From a virus (taxonomy: Duplodnaviria; Heunggongvirae; Uroviricota; Caudoviricetes), in IMG/VR virus record IMGVR_UViG_2778261179_000006, positions 1 to 64,000 of that record: DNA of 64,000 bases. The stretch is one strand, 5' to 3'. The notes beneath the pieces were generated by a model, which was not told where the DNA came from, searched no databases, and saw only the letters and a program-made list of their open reading frames with translations. Positions 1-29,986 of the stretch are shown piece by piece (the first letter of the stretch is position 1; each line of letters opens with the position of its first letter). Made by a program: the position numbers and the translations under genes.

Positions 1-316
1 TGACAAAGTCATCGGGCATTATCTGAATATAAAACACTATCAATAAGTTGGAGTCATTACCACACCAGAGAACACCACCCTTTAATTTATATGCGCGAAG
101 CTCGACTTCCCTTTCAAAATCAAGCCTAGCAACGAAGCTTGAGTGATCGGCTACTAGCCCGAACGCCAAAAATTCCGGCAACCCCTCAACTAGGATATGG
201 AAGTCATATACTTGATCAATACGCGAAGACACTCTCACCGATGCATTATAGGACTCGCCACCGAATAACACGTCAGCATCACCTGACAGCCCTGAAATCT
301 TTCCAGCCAAGTTCAT
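1..316 (-). CDS. hypothetical protein, 5' part only (3' end beyond window); first gene downstream of the recombinase operon, likely island cargo
   Basis: Minus-strand ATG at 316 with GGAGG 4 nt upstream; frame stays open for 105 codons to position 1. Not in ORF track because the stop lies outside the window. Confidence 0.4.
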   Translation of the reverse strand, partial: MNLAGKISGLSGDADVLFGGESYNASVRVSSRIDQVYDFHILVEGLPEFLAFGLVADHSSFVARLDFEREVELRAYKLKGGVLWCGNDSNLLIVFYIQIMPDDFV

Positions 317-352
317 ATCGCCTCCAATCCAGTGAGTAGAGTTACCCTTGAG

Positions 353-829
353 CTAAACACGGCCCGAAGGCGGTATTTCCTTATCAAACATTTTCAGAAT
401 TTTGGCTGACTCGGTATTTGACGGTAAATCTGCACCTTCAGGTGGAGTTTTATCGACACTTGCCATTTGTATACCCTTTTGCCTTACATGAAAGGCTATT
501 TGCTGCCAGCGGCGCTGCCACAGCTCTTCACGTTGCTTGTATGCTTCCAGCTCTGTTCTAAGGCGTGCTAGCTCCACCTGTAGCTGTTCGGCCTCTTTGG
601 TTGCTTGTTCTTTTGTTTTAACCAAGCCACCTGACAATGCTCTTTTGGCGTTGTCATAGGCTGCTTTAATTTCTGATTTTGCTTGAAGTGATTGGCGACT
701 AAACCCGAAACGCTCTTCCAGCACTGCCCAAGTTAACTTGGAGCCAAGCTCGCCCATAGCCCAGCGATCTAAATCAGCAACAATGGTATTGATATCACTA
801 TCCGACATACGTCTGAAACGCTTAGCCAT
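353..829 (-). CDS. small coiled-coil protein, fourth gene of the recombinase operon (ginD-like accessory protein)
   Basis: 158-aa ORF overlapping the stop of the upstream recombinase by 8 nt; charged/helical C-terminal half. Confidence 0.5.
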   Translation of the reverse strand: MAKRFRRMSDSDINTIVADLDRWAMGELGSKLTWAVLEERFGFSRQSLQAKSEIKAAYDNAKRALSGGLVKTKEQATKEAEQLQVELARLRTELEAYKQREELWQRRWQQIAFHVRQKGIQMASVDKTPPEGADLPSNTESAKILKMFDKEIPPSGRV

Positions 830-2831
830 GTTTCACCTCTATTAGATATTGCTCAGGGTCAAAATGCTCAACCCCATTGTCCGCTAATTGGGTTTTTAGG
901 GTTTTAAGTTTTTTATCATTGTGCGCAAGCCAGTCGGCACTTTTCTTTGGCTTTTGACTACTCATTTGCTGCTCAGCGTTTTTGCGAGCAATTGCCGTGA
1001 GTGCATATTGCCGTTTTAGGTCTTCCAATCGACCAGCGTCGCCTTTTGCCCACACATAGTCCTTGCAGTCTGCTGAACATTGCAAATGGCGCTCACAAGG
1101 TGTTTGCGAGAAATTATGGATACAAATACCAGTACCGACATCATGCACCGCCTGTACCCTTGCTTTGAGGAAAACATCCTGAACATCAACCGGAATCGCT
1201 TGAATCTGCTCTGCTATTTGCCCACCGACGAGTCCTTTCTTTATGTCTTGGCGCAGCATAAGCGCTCGCTTTTCTCGTGACGTATGCTGATACGCTTTTG
1301 TGTCTCGTGAATTCGTCCTACCAAACCATTCCGTCTGCAGTAGATCACTCAAACCGCCTTCATCAAGCAAGGTATTGAGTGTGTGTCGAAAATGGTGACT
1401 GGTGAAATCCACCTCGACACTAGCAGATGCATATTCCGCCGCGAGGTCAGGGAAATAGCGAAGGAATGTCGAAAACATTGACTGGCTGCAACTGGTCGCA
1501 AGCCAATGAGCATAAGTGCCACTCGAAAGGCCGAGTGGACGGAGGAAAAGTAAATCTTTCAGGTAATATTCTTTACCGAATTGATCGGTATGAATGGCCG
1601 AGAGACAGGCACCCGAAAAATCACGGGCACAGTACTTTTTCAAACCTTCCTTATTCGTGAAATGAATGGGGTTTCGTGGGCGTTGCCCTTGTTTGGTTCG
1701 CGCATCGACGTCTGGCCAAGCTAGGTTTTGTTTACGAAGCCAACCCGTTGACGTTAATCCTGTATCACTAATCCCTAATTCCTTTATATCGCTAGCATAG
1801 AGCCGCTGTTCACTCGGAATTTGCTCCAAAAAGCGTAAATCCGGCCCACGTGTTTTATGCATCTCTTCTGCCGTCTCGCGAGCCGCAGCGGTGAGATCTG
1901 CTAATTCATTGAGCACTTCTTCAACGATAGGTTTCACCTCTGATGGTAGGTACAATTTGCGTTTCGGAGTGAATACATCTCCTCGACTTGTTTTACGCGG
2001 GAAGTACTCGATATAACCGTTCCCTTCGTCATCAACAGACAGTGTTTGATTTGGTAAAAGTGAAACCTCACTAAACCGTCGCCCCGTGCACGCAAGCAAA
2101 GTCAATAACAAAACATACAGCCGGTATTTATGAATTTTCGGTACATTTTGATAAAGCTCTCCCATTACACGGAATACTTTTGGATCAACCAATTTGTCCG
2201 ATTTGGTCTCAATAACCTCTGGATCATCAAGCCGCTTGTGGCTTAAACCGTCCGTGCTCGCTGGGCGCTTCATTCGCGCGTATTTAAATTGCAACAGAAC
2301 CCGGCACAAGCCGTTGGCATCGCAATGCGCTGCGAACTCTGCAATATGTTTATGGAGGTTATATGCGGTCGCCTCGCGGTAATGTTTTGAAATTAACGCG
2401 CATGCATTATCAAGTGCTTCGGGAGTCAGGTTGAGTAGTTTCTGACCCAATTGAGTTGCAGCCGCGGCAACATAACCGACTGCTGTTATGAAGTTACGCT
2501 GATTGGGCGTTGACTGATGTTTTCTATGAAATCTTAAAACGAATAACGCCTTACACACTTCACCCCAACTATCCACTAGAGACTCGGCGCCTAATTTTGG
2601 TGATAAGGTAAAGACAAAAGACGCTGCTTTGATATTTTTTCCAGTCAGCTTCACAAGTCTGCCAGATGTTATCTTCCAATTCGATTCATGCCATTTAACC
2701 GACTCGAAACCATCTAACTTCAAAAGCTGGGCTTTGCTGACTAGGGCTTGTAAATTTGCATTCCGATCGCGTTCTAAACGATCAATAAAGGGAATAACTT
2801 TGGCTCTGCGTTGCGAGCGACCATCAGACAT
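822..2831 (-). CDS. tyrosine recombinase (third of trio)
   Basis: 669 aa; C-terminal HHFRHT...GRTN...AYQH resembles tyrosine-recombinase catalytic box; overlaps neighbours by a few nt. Confidence 0.75.
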   Translation of the reverse strand: MSDGRSQRRAKVIPFIDRLERDRNANLQALVSKAQLLKLDGFESVKWHESNWKITSGRLVKLTGKNIKAASFVFTLSPKLGAESLVDSWGEVCKALFVLRFHRKHQSTPNQRNFITAVGYVAAAATQLGQKLLNLTPEALDNACALISKHYREATAYNLHKHIAEFAAHCDANGLCRVLLQFKYARMKRPASTDGLSHKRLDDPEVIETKSDKLVDPKVFRVMGELYQNVPKIHKYRLYVLLLTLLACTGRRFSEVSLLPNQTLSVDDEGNGYIEYFPRKTSRGDVFTPKRKLYLPSEVKPIVEEVLNELADLTAAARETAEEMHKTRGPDLRFLEQIPSEQRLYASDIKELGISDTGLTSTGWLRKQNLAWPDVDARTKQGQRPRNPIHFTNKEGLKKYCARDFSGACLSAIHTDQFGKEYYLKDLLFLRPLGLSSGTYAHWLATSCSQSMFSTFLRYFPDLAAEYASASVEVDFTSHHFRHTLNTLLDEGGLSDLLQTEWFGRTNSRDTKAYQHTSREKRALMLRQDIKKGLVGGQIAEQIQAIPVDVQDVFLKARVQAVHDVGTGICIHNFSQTPCERHLQCSADCKDYVWAKGDAGRLEDLKRQYALTAIARKNAEQQMSSQKPKKSADWLAHNDKKLKTLKTQLADNGVEHFDPEQYLIEVKHG

Positions 2832-4422
2832 TCTCTTGGCCCTCTTCGCAGATTTTCACAACTTGTGCTACCGCCGATATCACTTCGTCGAGTTGAATCC
2901 CTAGGCGAGCATTTTCGTATTTTTCAAGTCGCTCTGTCCGACTCGCCAATAGGCAATCCAACACCTGCTCATGATCGGCATGTCGATAGGGCTGAAATTT
3001 AGGGCATAAATAGCAAGAGTATGGTGGGTCGAGGTGGCAAACGCTAGATTCTCCACAAACGCCGATATCGGACTGTACCGTCGGATTTTGTTCGTCAACA
3101 AAGATTAGGTGTTTGTCGTCACGATCACCATTGACAGCCTCAATATCGCTATCGACTACTTTACCTTTGAAAAAGTTTAGGTAATTAGACAAGGCTTTTG
3201 TGGTTGCCTTATCAAGGTGCTCAACAATTCTGCCAGCCATTTCAAAATAAACCTGCACATGCTGGGTATCGGTATGATCGAGAATCCTCGCCAGCTCACG
3301 CTTGCTAATTCCCTCAACTGCTAACCCTGTCGCAAGCGTATACCGCAGTCTTCGGGGGGTAACGTGCATCAATTCACCGGTAAGTGGGGAAATTAGATTG
3401 TGTCGTTTGATAAAGCCTCTGATGAGATTAGCTATACCTGTCGACATCATATTGAAGGCGTCATCCCAACGCTTCGACTCTAATGCATAAGAATTTTCGG
3501 TTGGTTTAATAAACAAAGGTCTCTCGATTTCTCTAACACTTCCATCAGCATCAACCACTAGCTTTTTATGTTGCGAAGCGTTGATAAGCGCCACTAGGTG
3601 TTTGGCAATATCCGGTTCCAAATATTCATCCACCATATCGTCTCTTGGCGCTAGTTGCCTCTTTTTAATTCTGGGCATTCGTAAAATATAGCAAGGTGAA
3701 TCGGAATCAGGCGTCAGGTTAATTAAGTCCGTTTCTTTTAGAAAAGTTAGGTTAGCTGGATTTCTTCCGAAAGCAATTGAAAGAGCTATAGCCGCCTTCT
3801 GTTGCAGGTGCTCATACTCCATACTGTTGTCTTGCTTTAACGTATTGATTATGAGTTGAAGCTCAAGAGTTCTATGAAGAGGTCCTCTATCAGGATCTTC
3901 TTGTCTAACTGCCTCCCCTTTTGGATTTCCCGGAATTTCCATCGCTTCTAACTCGTGAGCATAAATCTCCGAAAACCCAAATTCTGGGTAGTTTTCCGCG
4001 CACCAAATATACCACTGTATTGGTCTATACAATGCCCAAAGGCGGTGCCTTTTACGAGCTTCATTTATTGCGGCTTCCATCACCGCAATTAAACGTAATT
4101 CAAGATCATCAATGGAAAGATCGGAGACGAGGGAATAATCGGTCTGTTTCGAGAAAATTGCGGCAGATATATCACTCCAATATTGCACTCCAGCGTGCGA
4201 TGACACTCGCGTCGCTTGATCAATAATACAGCTTTTTACTACAACTTTAAGAGTGCCGCTTTGGATGCGAGAGAAGTCGAGCCGACTGTGTCGATATAGC
4301 AAGGGCAACACCCAAACATCTCCAGCACTCTCAACCTTAACACCCTCACGAGTAAAAAAAGTATCAGGTAAATTCAGCCTAGAATCATTATTATCTCTAG
4401 CTTGTTGAAGCAACTGGTTCAT
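2824..4422 (-). CDS. tyrosine recombinase (second of trio)
   Basis: 532 aa; RRLRYTLATG ... LDHTDTQHVQVY motif arrangement typical of integrase-family catalytic domain. Confidence 0.75.
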   Translation of the reverse strand: MNQLLQQARDNNDSRLNLPDTFFTREGVKVESAGDVWVLPLLYRHSRLDFSRIQSGTLKVVVKSCIIDQATRVSSHAGVQYWSDISAAIFSKQTDYSLVSDLSIDDLELRLIAVMEAAINEARKRHRLWALYRPIQWYIWCAENYPEFGFSEIYAHELEAMEIPGNPKGEAVRQEDPDRGPLHRTLELQLIINTLKQDNSMEYEHLQQKAAIALSIAFGRNPANLTFLKETDLINLTPDSDSPCYILRMPRIKKRQLAPRDDMVDEYLEPDIAKHLVALINASQHKKLVVDADGSVREIERPLFIKPTENSYALESKRWDDAFNMMSTGIANLIRGFIKRHNLISPLTGELMHVTPRRLRYTLATGLAVEGISKRELARILDHTDTQHVQVYFEMAGRIVEHLDKATTKALSNYLNFFKGKVVDSDIEAVNGDRDDKHLIFVDEQNPTVQSDIGVCGESSVCHLDPPYSCYLCPKFQPYRHADHEQVLDCLLASRTERLEKYENARLGIQLDEVISAVAQVVKICEEGQENV

Positions 4423-5600
4423 CTATCGCTTCCCATTGTCAGTTTCTTTTGGTAATCAGATAATGCTTGCCGAGCCCGATCTTCAATTTCTTGAGCAATA
4501 TAAACCGTTTGAGACTCTAAACTTGAGTCGCCACGTAACATTGCCAAAGCTTGCTTTCTACGGTCCTCTTCAAGACCTGCCTCTCGCAATGCCCTTTCCA
4601 TTCGAGTCGAGAATGTATGCCGCAATGCTTTCGGAGTCAGTATTTCTGGCAAGTAGTCCGGATATGCACTCCTTAGACGAGTAAAAAGTTGTGTCAGTGA
4701 TGAATGGGACAACGGGTTGCCTTCATCACTTAAGATCAAATAATCACTAGATTTACTCGATTTAGATTCTAGGCTCTCCCTCATTTCGACAATGTATCTG
4801 TCTAACATCCGTAGAAAGTGGCTACCCTCAAGCGGCAATACTCGACCACTGCGCTTAACACTGGGTCTGGGCCTTCTCTCGTCATTTGGATCGGGTGGTC
4901 TTCGTTGAATAGTTACCGACGAAATTGCCCCAATATTAATATCTTCAACCCGAAGACTAAGAAGCTCCCCTGGACGGAGTCCACAGTTAAGCATCAATGA
5001 TACTGCGACAAAGTTTCGATACTTAATCGGCTCGTAAAAAGCGAAAGAGTCAGCGCTCTCAGGGTTGAGACAATTAACTAAGAATCTGGCTTCATCCTCT
5101 GTCAAAGCTTTTCGGCTAATACCAGCACTCTTTGGACTATTAATAAAACCTTTCTCAATCCACGCGATGATTCGCTTTCTAGACTCTTGTATCGAGTCAT
5201 ACTGGCTATCATTCGATGGTAGAGACGACAAATAGACATCAATCTCCCAGACGAAATACTGGCGTATTGTGGCTAATCGACTATTAAACGTATGCGGGGC
5301 AACAACCTTGCTTTCGATCTCCATGTCTTTTCTCAAAAACTCTAGCAAGCTTCCTCTAAATTCAGCTTCCGAGAAAAGCGCACCGTTTTTTAGTCTCGAG
5401 TGCATGTCGATCCGATGAACGTTGAACCATCGATACAAAACAGACAGCTCACGAAGGTTTCTAATGAGGGTATTTGTGCTTAAGTTTCGTCTTCCCATCA
5501 CAAACTCGTTAGGAGACGGGATTGGTAAACCATCATCATCTAGAAGTATTGGTAATAGATCACCAGAACTGTGTACAACGGTTTCAACTCTCACAAACAC
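4419..5600 (-). CDS. tyrosine recombinase (first of trio)
   Basis: 393 aa; KALRHTFSTR ... QTVYIAQE C-terminal integrase-like box; first gene of a 4-gene overlapping operon. Confidence 0.75.
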   Translation of the reverse strand: MFVRVETVVHSSGDLLPILLDDDGLPIPSPNEFVMGRRNLSTNTLIRNLRELSVLYRWFNVHRIDMHSRLKNGALFSEAEFRGSLLEFLRKDMEIESKVVAPHTFNSRLATIRQYFVWEIDVYLSSLPSNDSQYDSIQESRKRIIAWIEKGFINSPKSAGISRKALTEDEARFLVNCLNPESADSFAFYEPIKYRNFVAVSLMLNCGLRPGELLSLRVEDINIGAISSVTIQRRPPDPNDERRPRPSVKRSGRVLPLEGSHFLRMLDRYIVEMRESLESKSSKSSDYLILSDEGNPLSHSSLTQLFTRLRSAYPDYLPEILTPKALRHTFSTRMERALREAGLEEDRRKQALAMLRGDSSLESQTVYIAQEIEDRARQALSDYQKKLTMGSDR

Positions 5601-5690
5601 CCCTTTGTTTACACTTTAGTCACCAAAGAACTTTTATATTTACATTTAATTTTATAAGCGAACTTTTATAATTACACAACCTTCGGACAA

Positions 5691-5730
5691 TAAAAAGCCC
5701 TCTTTTAACTTTACAGAAAAAAGAGGGCTC
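5691..5730 (-). terminator. hairpin terminator downstream of ssb
   Basis: Inverted repeat AGCCCTCTTTT / AAAAGAGGGCT with A-run on plus strand (U-run on minus transcript). Confidence 0.45.
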
Positions 5731-5812
5731 GAATGCTTATAACACACTAATTTAATTGGTTATTTATTTAGATAAATCTGTAAATAAATTTACATTTAAA
5801 TATTTATCAGGG

Positions 5813-6301
5813 CTAAAACGGAATATCGTCGTCAAAGTCCATTGGAGGTTCGTTATTGGCGTTGCTCTGAGGTTTACCGCCACCACTGTATTGCTGGTGG
5901 TTTTGAGGTTGGTTTGATTGCCCCCAGCCATTTGAGGACTGTGAATCGTCACGGCGAGCGCCTATCATTTGCATGGTGCCGCCCTGGCTGACGATAATTT
6001 CCGTCGTGTAACGTTCTACACCGGCGTCATCTGTCCACTTACGGGTTTTAAGTTTCCCTTCGATGTAGACCTGAGAACCTTTTCGTAAATATTCACTCGC
6101 AATTTCAGCAAGTTTTCCGAACAAAACGACTTTATGCCATTCTGTTTGCTCTTTCTGTTGGCCCGTTTGCTTGTCGCGCCATGATTCATTCGTTGCGATG
6201 CTGAGTATTCCGACCGCTCCGCCATTTGGTATATACCTGATCTCCGGGTCTTGCCCCAGGGTACCAATCAGGATGACTTTGTTTACACCGCGTTGTGCCA
6301 C
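5813..6301 (-). CDS. ssb: single-stranded DNA-binding protein
   Basis: 162 aa; OB-fold SSB N-terminus, Gly/Gln-rich linker, acidic C-terminal tail DFDDDIPF. Confidence 0.9.
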
Positions 6302-27667: not shown

Positions 27668-28711
27668 TTATCTAACGCTCGACGAGTGACTTGTGATAGC
27701 GCCGACTCCAAGCGCGTAATCAAAGAACAATCGTTGATGCATCGCCAGCCTACCGTGCGTCTTCTCCCAATTATCGCGGTCACGCTCAATATCACGCTGG
27801 CATGACTGGCACAGAGGAATAGCATAAATGTCATGCGCGCATAATCGACTATGACGAACGATATAAGGCGTAATGTGAGCGCCAGCTCCCGCAGCCCCAC
27901 AGCCACAGCATGGACGGGAAGCCACAAAGTCCATGTACTCGGGCAATTTTAGCGATTGAAGTTTTGGTATTTTGAAATGCGCCATACCTGGGTCGGAGTC
28001 AACATCCACAGGGCATACTTTTGCACGCATCGGCGCGGCGCGTTCTTCCATCATCTGAACATATGCTGTAGCGCGATCGTCATACGGGCGAATATCCGCC
28101 TCTTTCAGAGGTCCGCTATCCTGCGGAGTAGCCTTCATCTTATTTATTGATATGCGGCAGACTTCTTCCGGCATCAGGTGCATCATGTTGCGCATGAAAG
28201 CCCACCAGCACAGCTCCTGAATACTTAAATCATGGCTATTTGAAAGGCCCATTTCCTGACGGGCGACATCCAGTATCCAGTTAACGCGATTATTGTGCAG
28301 CGTTTCTTTCAGCTCATTAAAACCACGCATCCGGTAATGGTTATCGTGATGCCAGCACAACAACACCGCGCTATTGTCTCGTTCTGCGTGGACAATATGG
28401 TTGTCACACCAGCTACGATCTGCGGCCTGGCATTGCCCCTCTTTCCTGCGCAACCACGCCACCAGCGCGTCAATTCCACCAATACGGCGAAACAGTTCAT
28501 CGCTGTTAAAAAACGGCTGCAACGCCTCATTTGTTGCCATAGTTTGCTCGGAAACAACGAGGCCGTCGTCCATGTGCTCGATTAACTCACGCGGCACCGG
28601 CTCCATAATAAATTTACGGCCAGCCTCCACCAGCTTTCTGACTTCCTGATCCACTTTGAATGTGGCGACGCCAAGCTCTTTTTGTACAAAGGGAGTAATT
28701 ACGGCTTTCAC
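27668..28711 (-). CDS. hypothetical Cys-rich protein (pdcB-like, downstream of doc)
   Basis: 347 aa; C-terminal CCGCG...CQSCQ cysteine cluster; follows the phd-doc operon. Confidence 0.4.
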
Positions 28712-28738
28712 ATCACACCTTTCATCACTGATTGGGCT

Positions 28739-28939
28739 TTATCTGCTGCCCGGCATTCTCTGTTTAAGCACAACCATTTCCTGACGGCATAACACAGCAA
28801 TAGCGGTCCTGGCACCAATTTGCTTACCAACCAGGTATTGCTTTACCTTGCGGCGACTCACGCCATCAAGAAGCATCTTTAACGCTTCACGGGACAATTT
28901 GTTGTATTTGCGTGCCATTAATCTACTCCGCAGAACCAT
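28739..28939 (-). CDS. small basic protein downstream of doc
   Basis: 66-aa ORF overlapping the doc 3' end by 17 nt. Confidence 0.3.
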
Positions 28940-29303
28940 ACAATCTACGTAACGTGTCGGCGACAGAAGATACAGATATCTCGCCAGTTGCAGCGCCTAC
29001 AGTAAGGTCTGCCAGTTCAGGTGAATCAAATACCTGCACCCCGTTACGGCGTAGAAATAGCAGCGCACTGTTTAGCGCAGTACGCTTATTGGCATCATTG
29101 AATATATGCCCTCTCGCTGTAGCCACCAGGTAGGTGGCGGAGACTTCGAAAAGGTCGGTGATCTCTTCGTAGGCAACTCTGGCCTGAACTCTCCCGATAA
29201 TGGCCTCTGCCCTACCCGGATCTGACATTCCCGGCAGGCCGCCGTAGCGGCTTATATTCGCATCATGAAGCGCAATAAGTTCTTCCGGTGATATATGCCT
29301 CAT
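28923..29303 (-). CDS. doc: Doc toxin (Fic-family kinase)
   Basis: 126 aa; Fic motif [11 protein letters not shown]. Confidence 0.9.
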
Positions 29304-29524
29304 TATCGGTTAACCAGTTCCTTGTTGGTGGAGTCCAGGGTGTCAAACAGGGATGCAAATTCAGCATCCAGCGCCGCTTTTTTGTAGGCTTCGAAAGTAG
29401 CCTTGCTGACAATTACTGCTGGCTCACGGCCTCTGCGGGTGATTTCAACCTCTTCCCCGGCTTCAACATTGTTGAGCACTTCAGAAAGGTTGCCGCGCGC
29501 GGTACGGAAGTTAATGGATTGCAT
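29303..29524 (-). CDS. phd: Phd antitoxin
   Basis: 73 aa starting [73 protein letters not shown]; stop overlaps doc start by 1 nt. Confidence 0.9.
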
Positions 29525-29596
29525 AAACACCTCGTGTACTCGTTATGTGTACACAATTATAAACTTCACAGGCATAAAGCACCAGCACTTTGCAGC

Positions 29597-29986
29597 TTAA
29601 ATAACCGGACAATCATCAAATTCCCCACTTCGGGCATCATTGATGACATGAGTGATCACACCAAAAACAGCATTACTGCCCGTGTATCCATCGTCATCTA
29701 CTGGTAACGCCTCTTTCTTCCCGGTGCTTAAGTCCTCCAGGTGCTGGCGCGGATACTTCCTGTATCTCTTTATGCGATATTCACCCTCCATAGCGCACAC
29801 AAGCAGAGAACCATCAACCGGAGTAAGCGAGGAATCAACCACCAGCAAAGCACCCTGCAATATTCCCTCACGGTGATGGCTATCAGCTGCCCGCATGAAG
29901 TAGGTCGCTGAAGGATGTCTAATTATCTGCTGATCAAGAGAAATTCGGCTTTCAACATAATCCGCCGCAGGAGAAGGGAAGCCCAT
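29597..29986 (-). CDS. humD: UmuD-like SOS mutagenesis protein
   Basis: 129 aa, peptidase S24/UmuD-like C-terminal domain; LexA box immediately upstream. Confidence 0.7.
   Translation of the reverse strand: MGFPSPAADYVESRISLDQQIIRHPSATYFMRAADSHHREGILQGALLVVDSSLTPVDGSLLVCAMEGEYRIKRYRKYPRQHLEDLSTGKKEALPVDDDGYTGSNAVFGVITHVINDARSGEFDDCPVI

Follow-up and report, generated by a model that had tools for sequence, protein, structure and literature searches.

An IS1-truncated YopA-family gene behind the recombination genes of a GInt on a P1-like phage-plasmid

Introduction

GInts are islands with the genes ginABCD at one end, cargo that begins at the ginD stop codon, transcription that runs into the cargo, and frequent restriction-modification (R-M) genes within that cargo (Bardaji et al. 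2017, PMC5385486). They insert preferentially at the end of ssb, and in the published system the four genes are enough for excision and integration (PMC5385486). Catalogued ginC and ginD orthologues include WP_001469675.1 and WP_001565354.1 (Idola et al., PMC10214605, Additional file 10).

Among defence proteins, ApeA is a single-gene HEPN anti-phage system that cleaves tRNA anticodons (bioRxiv 10.64898/2026.01.26.701840). ApeA is found in bacteria more than in archaea and is embedded in R-M operons; its ApeA-NTD1 domain, of about 300 aa, consists mostly of beta strands with conserved aromatics and is fused to the ApeA HEPN domain (Anantharaman 2013, PMC3710099).

The DNA analysed here, called the window, comprises 64,000 nt of a Caudoviricetes record (IMG/VR IMGVR_UViG_2778261179_000006, positions 1-64,000). 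At its left edge a minus-strand open reading frame (ORF) runs off the sequence from position 316, and the original prediction took it for the start of whatever the recombinase island carries. Positions 62-316 are very probably a 5′ stub, left from the gene that opens the cargo of a GInt (ginABCD at 353-5600), inserted at the ssb 3′ end of a P1-like phage-plasmid and truncated by IS1, with the history and function set out below. GInts as an element type and YopA as a protein family have both been catalogued before, identical sequences stand in RefSeq, and nothing here is new. The consequence is one of annotation: the edge ORF should be recorded as an IS1-disrupted pseudogene and not as an unknown gene running off the window.

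A GInt at the ssb gene of a P1-like phage-plasmid

From position 5813 the window is P1-like backbone, with ssb (5813-6301, minus strand; the island's integration target), lysozyme, a head-processing protein, portal, a DarB-like methylase, and tail and replication genes. Where a P1-like plasmid lacks the island, it matches the window from 5813 onward only. The AT-rich left end of the island and its attL junction with the host replicon lie at 5601-5824, overlapping the ssb stop codon, as judged by comparing junction sequences.

Beside this junction, the minus strand carries four ORFs of 393, 532, 669 and 158 aa that overlap by 4-8 nt, the ginABCD arrangement at one end of the island. The first encodes a ginA-like tyrosine recombinase (4419-5600; Phage_integrase, E 1.3e-15), the second a ginB-like tyrosine recombinase (2824-4422; Phage_integrase, E 2.1e-5; NCBIfam integrase_1, 1.3e-80), the third a ginC-like protein with a tyrosine-recombinase fold (822-2831; 99.6% identical to WP_001469675.1, with a weak Phage_integrase match) and the fourth a small ginD-like protein (353-829; 96.2% identical to WP_001565354.1, with a weak DUF6262 match). 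All three large Gin proteins match Phage_integrase, though the Pfam cut-off is exceeded only by the one of 393 aa. [quoted passage not shown] Because these alleles are listed only among GInt orthologues, the island is classed as a GInt, and identity as an SE or a Tn554-like element was rejected.

The resemblance to described GInts extends to three overlapping genes with a tyrosine-recombinase fold followed by a small fourth gene, cargo placed right after ginD, R-M genes within that cargo, and insertion at the ssb end without change to the ssb product. The window copy differs in that its replicon is a P1-like phage-plasmid and not a chromosome, and in that IS1 has invaded its cargo; its excision is putative. 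Here a GInt, supposedly non-mobilisable, rides on a phage-plasmid of P1-like type that is itself transmissible. Copies of the island abut the stop codon of three ssb genes: chromosomal ssb1 (ssb1/uvrA), the P1-like ssb and that of the non-P1 plasmid pKTa005_2. Imperfect direct repeats with an A[A/G]AACGG core lie at both island ends in locus L012 and in E. coli A29.

What the cargo looks like when complete can be read from the P1-like plasmid NZ_CP148442.1, where the order is ssb, ginABCD, a YopA-like gene, HTH_73, hsdM, hsdS, two DUF262/GmrSD genes, hsdR, an M48 peptidase gene and P1 genes. The YopA-like gene is likewise the first after ginD in E. coli, in a marine gammaproteobacterial MAG and in Aliidiomarina.

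The junction footprints are reciprocal: the P1 copy ends with the chromosomal-type TCAGAACGG, and the chromosomal copy of A29 with the P1-type TCAAAACGG (window 5601-6301 compared with L012 9650-9700 and 28200-28240, L005 7320-7345 and L001 14800-14830). This pattern of sequence suggests that the GInt may shuttle between P1-like phage-plasmid and chromosome; if so, the phage-plasmid would be a transfer vehicle for a supposedly non-mobilisable GInt.

The GInt of Aliidiomarina quisquiliarum (L015 4816-11302) is a mosaic, in which GinA and GinB are 51% and 66% identical to the proteins of the window, against 94% for GinC, 96% for GinD and 93% for the YopA-like protein. Given the 93-96% identity of the latter three, ginC-ginD-yopA therefore moved as a block between enterobacterial and marine hosts. 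One contig labelled as an uncultured Collinsella MAG (CALJDJ010000001.1, L013) encodes ginABCD proteins 100% identical to those of the window together with an intact YopA-like gene, and almost certainly reflects misbinning, with E. coli or plasmid DNA placed in an actinobacterial MAG.

The ORF at the window edge

The start of the edge ORF is as the original prediction described it. Its ATG occupies 316-314 on the minus strand, preceded by a Shine-Dalgarno-like GGAGG at 325-321 with a 4-nt spacer, both read directly from the sequence. The 158-aa ginD-like ORF ends with a TAG stop at 355-353, leaving a spacer of exactly 36 nt (352-317, minus strand) before the ATG, and translation of 316-1 gives 105 sense codons without a stop, in agreement with the predicted open frame of at least 105 codons. 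The explanation offered for its absence from the ORF track, a stop beyond the window, also holds, because that list omits frames that run off the source.

Co-transcription with the recombinase operon, which had been called probable, is plausible. A promoter and terminator scan of the 36-nt gap between ginD and the ORF found no promoter-like or terminator-like site, and RT-PCR on another GInt follows transcription from ginD into the cargo (PMC5385486). The same scan places one weak terminator-like hairpin at 288-271, within the edge ORF, and its total site count for the region does not exceed that of shuffled sequence. On the opposite strand, a 66-aa TTG-initiated ORF (139-339, plus strand) overlaps the remnant in antisense orientation; it is probably a chance frame.

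Truncation by IS1

The first 61 positions of the window read TGACAAAGTCATCGGGCATTATCTGAATATAAAACACTATCAATAAGTTGGAGTCATTACC on the plus strand. Positions 61-39 carry GGTAATGACTCCAACTTATTGAT with 0 mismatches, where 0 matches are expected by chance; this 23-bp motif is taken here to be the IS1 terminal inverted repeat. An IS1 end has a 23-bp terminal inverted repeat beside the 3′ end of the transposase gene; the complete element also carries a second inverted repeat, makes its InsAB′ transposase by programmed frameshift and is flanked by a 9-bp target duplication. Window 1-61 (plus strand) is accordingly the right end of IS1, with its terminal repeat at 39-61 and the remainder of the element beyond the window edge. 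Megablast of positions 1-400 returns 7,983 E. coli records, nearly all of them with IS1 transposase annotations and a match confined to about the first 60-95 nt, and uninterrupted homologues of the gene match the window from position 62 only. E. coli A29 has an IS1 copy, annotated as IS1A, that is identical to positions 1-61, and the adjoining IS1 is complete in relatives.

The same boundary emerges from comparison with the intact gene. Counted from the ATG, nt 1-255 are identical between the window and the intact gene, and the two then diverge: CTCTGGTGT (ending in TGGTGT) is followed by GGTAATGACTCC in the window and by AAGCCTATAAAG in the intact gene. In protein, the intact sequence continues ...LWCKPIKAEI... 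and that of the window ...LWCGNDSNLL... Since identity stops at nt 255 and IS1 follows, codons 1-85 (316-62) belong to the gene and codons 86-105 to IS1. The latter (GNDSNLLIVFYIQIMPDDFV) are stop-free in this frame by chance; both alternative frames of positions 1-63 are interrupted by stops.

An intact gene whose 3′ part and stop merely lie beyond the window, forming the first functional cargo gene here, would account for the 105 codons open to the edge, the good start and the SD-like site. Such a gene is scarcely tenable, being refuted by the boundary at 61/62 and the IS1 terminal sequence that makes up codons 86-105. The A29 chromosome, identical to window 1-400, has the same junction, with ...LWCGNDSNLL... 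in place of the intact ...LWCKPIKAEI..., and there the chimeric frame ends after 111 codons, 6 past the window edge. With A29 as a proxy for how long the chimeric ORF is, the supposed continuation of the gene beyond the window is absent, and the in-frame stop just outside the window that had been named beforehand as counting against it is present.

That the edge ORF is an IS1-truncated pseudogene, a dead remnant of 85 of 437 codons (a 19% stub), is close to certain. The remnant lies at 62-316 on the minus strand, and its 255 nt are identical to the intact gene. IS1, whose right end is window 1-61, has removed everything beyond codon 85. The claim that the ORF begins the island's cargo stands in part: it has a genuine coding start and is the first gene after ginD, yet IS1 cuts it after codon 85, so that in this replicon it is not the start of carried cargo. 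A search of E. coli and plasmid collections found no record that joins the junction of nt 255 and IS1 with a P1-like ssb.

The intact gene and the YopA family

An intact gene of 437 aa, its 5′ end identical to the window, is carried by the E. coli P1-like plasmid NZ_CP061756.1 at 28424-29737 (L003 7942-9255). The homologue search proposed for the edge ORF bears out its coding origin, in that this conserved 437-aa protein begins with the very 85 residues of the window (100% identity). At 88-94% identity to the intact gene, full-length homologues are present in E. coli, Aliidiomarina and the marine MAG, with precomputed matches to both YopA_M and YopA_C. A word-seeded homology search gives 15 relatives, all with precomputed Pfam assignments to PF26308 (YopA_M) and PF27216 (YopA_C), and RefSeq names a 95%-identical allele "YopA family protein" (PGAP). 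An exhaustive profile search recovers 3,707 representative clusters (50% identity) at E<=1e-3, of which 2,001 reach E<=1e-30; among the best 150 of the 3,707, lengths are mostly about 440-460 aa with near-full-length matches. Family loci are found in many bacterial phyla and in methanogenic archaea.

These homologies decide against the idea that the ORF is non-coding island DNA that happens to be open. Chance ORFs of 60-160 aa are numerous in the window, and an antisense 66-aa frame overlaps at 139-339, but 85 residues identical to a conserved N-terminus, homologues that are 88-94% identical over their full length and the 3,707 remote relatives refute a chance origin, which can practically be dismissed.

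The family takes its name from yopA of the SPbeta prophage of Bacillus subtilis. The intact protein aligns with SPbeta YopA by tblastn to yopA (E 1e-7, residues 136-431) and belongs to the same sequence family, although identity is 24% and the setting is a Bacillus prophage there and a GInt in Enterobacteria here. A literature search on YopA, PF26308 and PF27216 found no relevant paper and no experimental work on the YopA family. Scans of the intact protein against Pfam (a set without the YopA_M and YopA_C models; E<=0.01), NCBIfam, PADLOC (E<=1) and PHROGs gave no match.

Two alleles of the island can be compared at window 62-400 and L012 22400-22770. The first 85 YopA-like codons and the end of ginD are 86.7% identical in nucleotides, against about 98% elsewhere, and 13 of the 31 amino acid differences between the two YopA-like alleles fall in residues 1-85. 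This stretch would be a local diversity hot spot or a recombination patch.

Motif, fold and likeness to known RNases

Across 143 diverse members, G205, E300, N371 and H375 are invariant, and R370 is present in at least 90%. The intact homologue carries R370-N371-D-L-V-H375, a HEPN Rx4-6H motif with a polar residue after R, and R-N-x-L-V-H-P in the family is the textbook form of that motif. The upstream acidic element Ex3[KR], which the motif definition places in the first core helix (PMC3710099), corresponds to the invariant E300, and reads E-L-L-A-K in the E. coli protein. The window fragment ends at residue 85 and lacks the entire catalytic half with its HEPN motif; it contains no invariant family residue, the first being N111/F112 and the catalytic motif lying at 370-375.

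An AlphaFold2 model of the intact protein (mean pLDDT 85.4, pTM 0.85) has a beta-rich part at 10-230 and a helical part at 248-407. The predicted architecture would pair a beta-rich domain of about 240 aa at the N-terminus with a helical domain carrying RNxxxH at the C-terminus. Foldseek of the model against PDB and BFVD returned nothing at E<=0.001, the highest-probability PDB matches being Csm6 and non-significant; a profile search against PDB sequences returned only OhrB, insignificantly.

Against this architecture, the truncated product can be judged. Read as a functional protein of about 111 aa (85 native and 26 IS1-derived residues), for example a dominant-negative fragment or an antitoxin, it would profit from intact start signals and plausible transcription from the gin operon, and both the window and A29 have retained this junction. 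In the model, however, the fragment would span only part of the first beta domain, with strands at 11-87 of a domain reaching 230; it has no invariant family residue, and its tail is fortuitous IS1 sequence. The junction common to the window and A29 is identical because of common descent, which explains its presence in both. A functional stub is very improbable. The preferred reading is a dead remnant: a stub transcript from the gin operon is possible, and the sole possible product would be a non-functional chimeric peptide of about 111 aa.

One close counterpart of the intact protein is ApeA. Both have a C-terminal RNxxxH and a mostly beta N-terminal domain of about 240-300 aa with conserved aromatics, both occur in bacteria more than in archaea, and both are embedded in R-M loci. 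They differ in that characterised E. coli ApeA is about 580 aa, predominantly helical and forms decamers, whereas YopA-family proteins are about 440 aa with a beta-rich N-terminal half. When 141 relatives were scanned one by one, the sole Pfam families matched were HEPN_Apea (3 relatives, best E 7.5e-4) and ApeA_NTD1 (1 relative, 3.7e-3), and 1 of the 141 matched the PADLOC model Cas13-ApeA (1.5e-3). With those 4 weak Pfam matches among 141 relatives, and with no Pfam (E<=0.01) or PADLOC (E<=1) match for the intact protein itself, the family falls outside ApeA by HMM. Because its architecture matches the ApeA-NTD1 plus HEPN plan described in PMC3710099, the YopA family is regarded as a remote ApeA relative of the same domain plan and not as a member by HMM.

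A second likeness is to the anticodon nuclease PrrC of the EcoprrI type Ic R-M locus, which is also a HEPN-motif protein adjoining hsdM, hsdS and hsdR. In the PrrC model, the RNase is a second line of defence once the R-M system has been neutralised. PrrC differs in having an N-terminal ABC-ATPase and in sitting between hsdS and hsdR; the YopA-like protein has a beta-rich N-terminal domain and is encoded upstream of an HTH gene and hsdM, and its coupling to the R-M system is putative.

Neighbourhoods and candidate function

The genes around family members are often defence genes. The neighbour scan covered 123 neighbours of 35 distant loci and 2 from the Aliidiomarina GInt. Families with 3 matches each are PglZ, N6_N4_Mtase, SNF2/ResIII/Helicase_C and AAA_15/AAA_21, those with 2 each are N6_Mtase, MmeI, ThsB_TIR and Methylase_S, and SMODS has at least 1; Eco57I is also found beside distant members. 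Recurrent neighbour families (more than one match) are mostly defence families, including R-M and BREX types, and eight of the ten large adjacent same-strand neighbours are methyltransferases or helicases of R-M type. One distant member lies between an SMC/AAA_15 ATPase and KAP NTPase on one side and an N6_N4 methyltransferase and ResIII on the other; another lies in a sugar-biosynthesis (polysaccharide) cluster and not in a defence locus. In the marine gammaproteobacterial MAG the order is uvrA, MFS, ssb, four gin-like genes (391, 532, 669 and 158 aa), YopA (440 aa), HTH genes and a different type I R-M system. These settings support a defence role for the family and are compatible with a putative PrrC-like coupling to DNA-modification systems.

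The position behind ginD admits another reading, in which the YopA-like protein would be a fifth, lineage-specific GInt recombination accessory, such as a regulator or directionality factor, and not a defence RNase. The place directly after ginD is kept in three hosts, and in Aliidiomarina the GinC, GinD and YopA-like proteins are 93-96% identical to their counterparts, as against 51% for GinA and 66% for GinB, three genes moving as a block. Yet gin genes are absent from the surroundings of 46 of the 49 family loci detected across 185,579 species genomes, the E. coli gene is broken at six or more points in islands that keep ginABCD, the conserved RNxxxH and the defence neighbourhoods point to an RNase toxin, and four genes sufficed for excision and integration in the published system (PMC5385486). 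A recombination accessory is improbable.

On motif, fold and neighbourhood, the intact protein is, with moderate confidence, a HEPN endoribonuclease in abortive-infection defence, possibly backing the type I R-M system. It would act as a metal-independent enzyme in anti-phage abortive infection, with the N-terminal domain sensing infection, and by analogy with PrrC it may serve as a second line of defence after the type I R-M system encoded next to it. The YopA family is large (3,707 clusters) and has only been named; its HEPN motif and defence context make it a reasonable phage-defence candidate.

A more detailed version is tentative and rather doubtful: a single-gene abortive-infection RNase whose N-terminal PilZ-like beta-barrel region would sense a nucleotide or phage cue, which would guard the type I R-M system, and whose recurrent disruption by insertion sequences (at least 6 breakpoints, 19 E. 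coli genomes) would be a sign of autotoxicity or of a cost. If that were true, GInts on P1-like phage-plasmids would spread a two-layer defence module.

Breakpoints, a proposed disruption history and the IS1-mrk transposon

The 19 E. coli genomes with the YopA-like gene show at least six distinct breakpoints, with ginABCD usually intact. IS1 accounts for the break at nt 255 and, as a different copy seen in five records, for that at nt 260; IS3 interrupts the gene at about nt 465, IS5 at about nt 907 and IS1-mrk at nt 927, and one further break lies at about nt 707. The disrupted E. coli loci compared are L001, L002, L004, L006 and L062. Repeated breakage could mean that the gene carries a cost, or simply that the region is prone to insertion sequences. 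The IS1 insertions at nt 255 and nt 260 are independent and 5 nt apart.

Two strains allow the order of events behind the window's junction to be proposed. In E. coli EC2001, nt 1-927 of the gene are followed by IS1-mrkABCDF-IS1 and then yjcB. In A29, nt 1-255 are followed by three IS1 copies with mrk genes between them, then by the gene from nt 919 and the R-M genes. The two fragments overlap by 9 nt (919-927), fitting the 9-bp target duplication of IS1. An IS1-flanked mrkABCDF composite transposon would first have inserted at nt 919-927 of the YopA-like gene, to judge from these close relatives, and an IS1-adjacent deletion would then have run back to nt 255, giving the junction common to A29 and the window.

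Because A29 shares the junction at nt 255, what lies immediately beyond the window edge is most likely IS1 and then a type 3 fimbriae operon, the presence of mrk being read from relatives with an identical junction. The original island cargo is interrupted here at least by IS1, and probably by the IS1-mrk fimbrial transposon. Type 3 fimbriae (mrkABCDF) are typical of Klebsiella. The IS1-flanked mrkABCDF transposon occupies different sites in different strains: it lies inside the YopA-like gene in chromosomes (L001/L062) and inside ginC on the P1-like plasmid NZ_CP061756.1 (L003 9761-12399).
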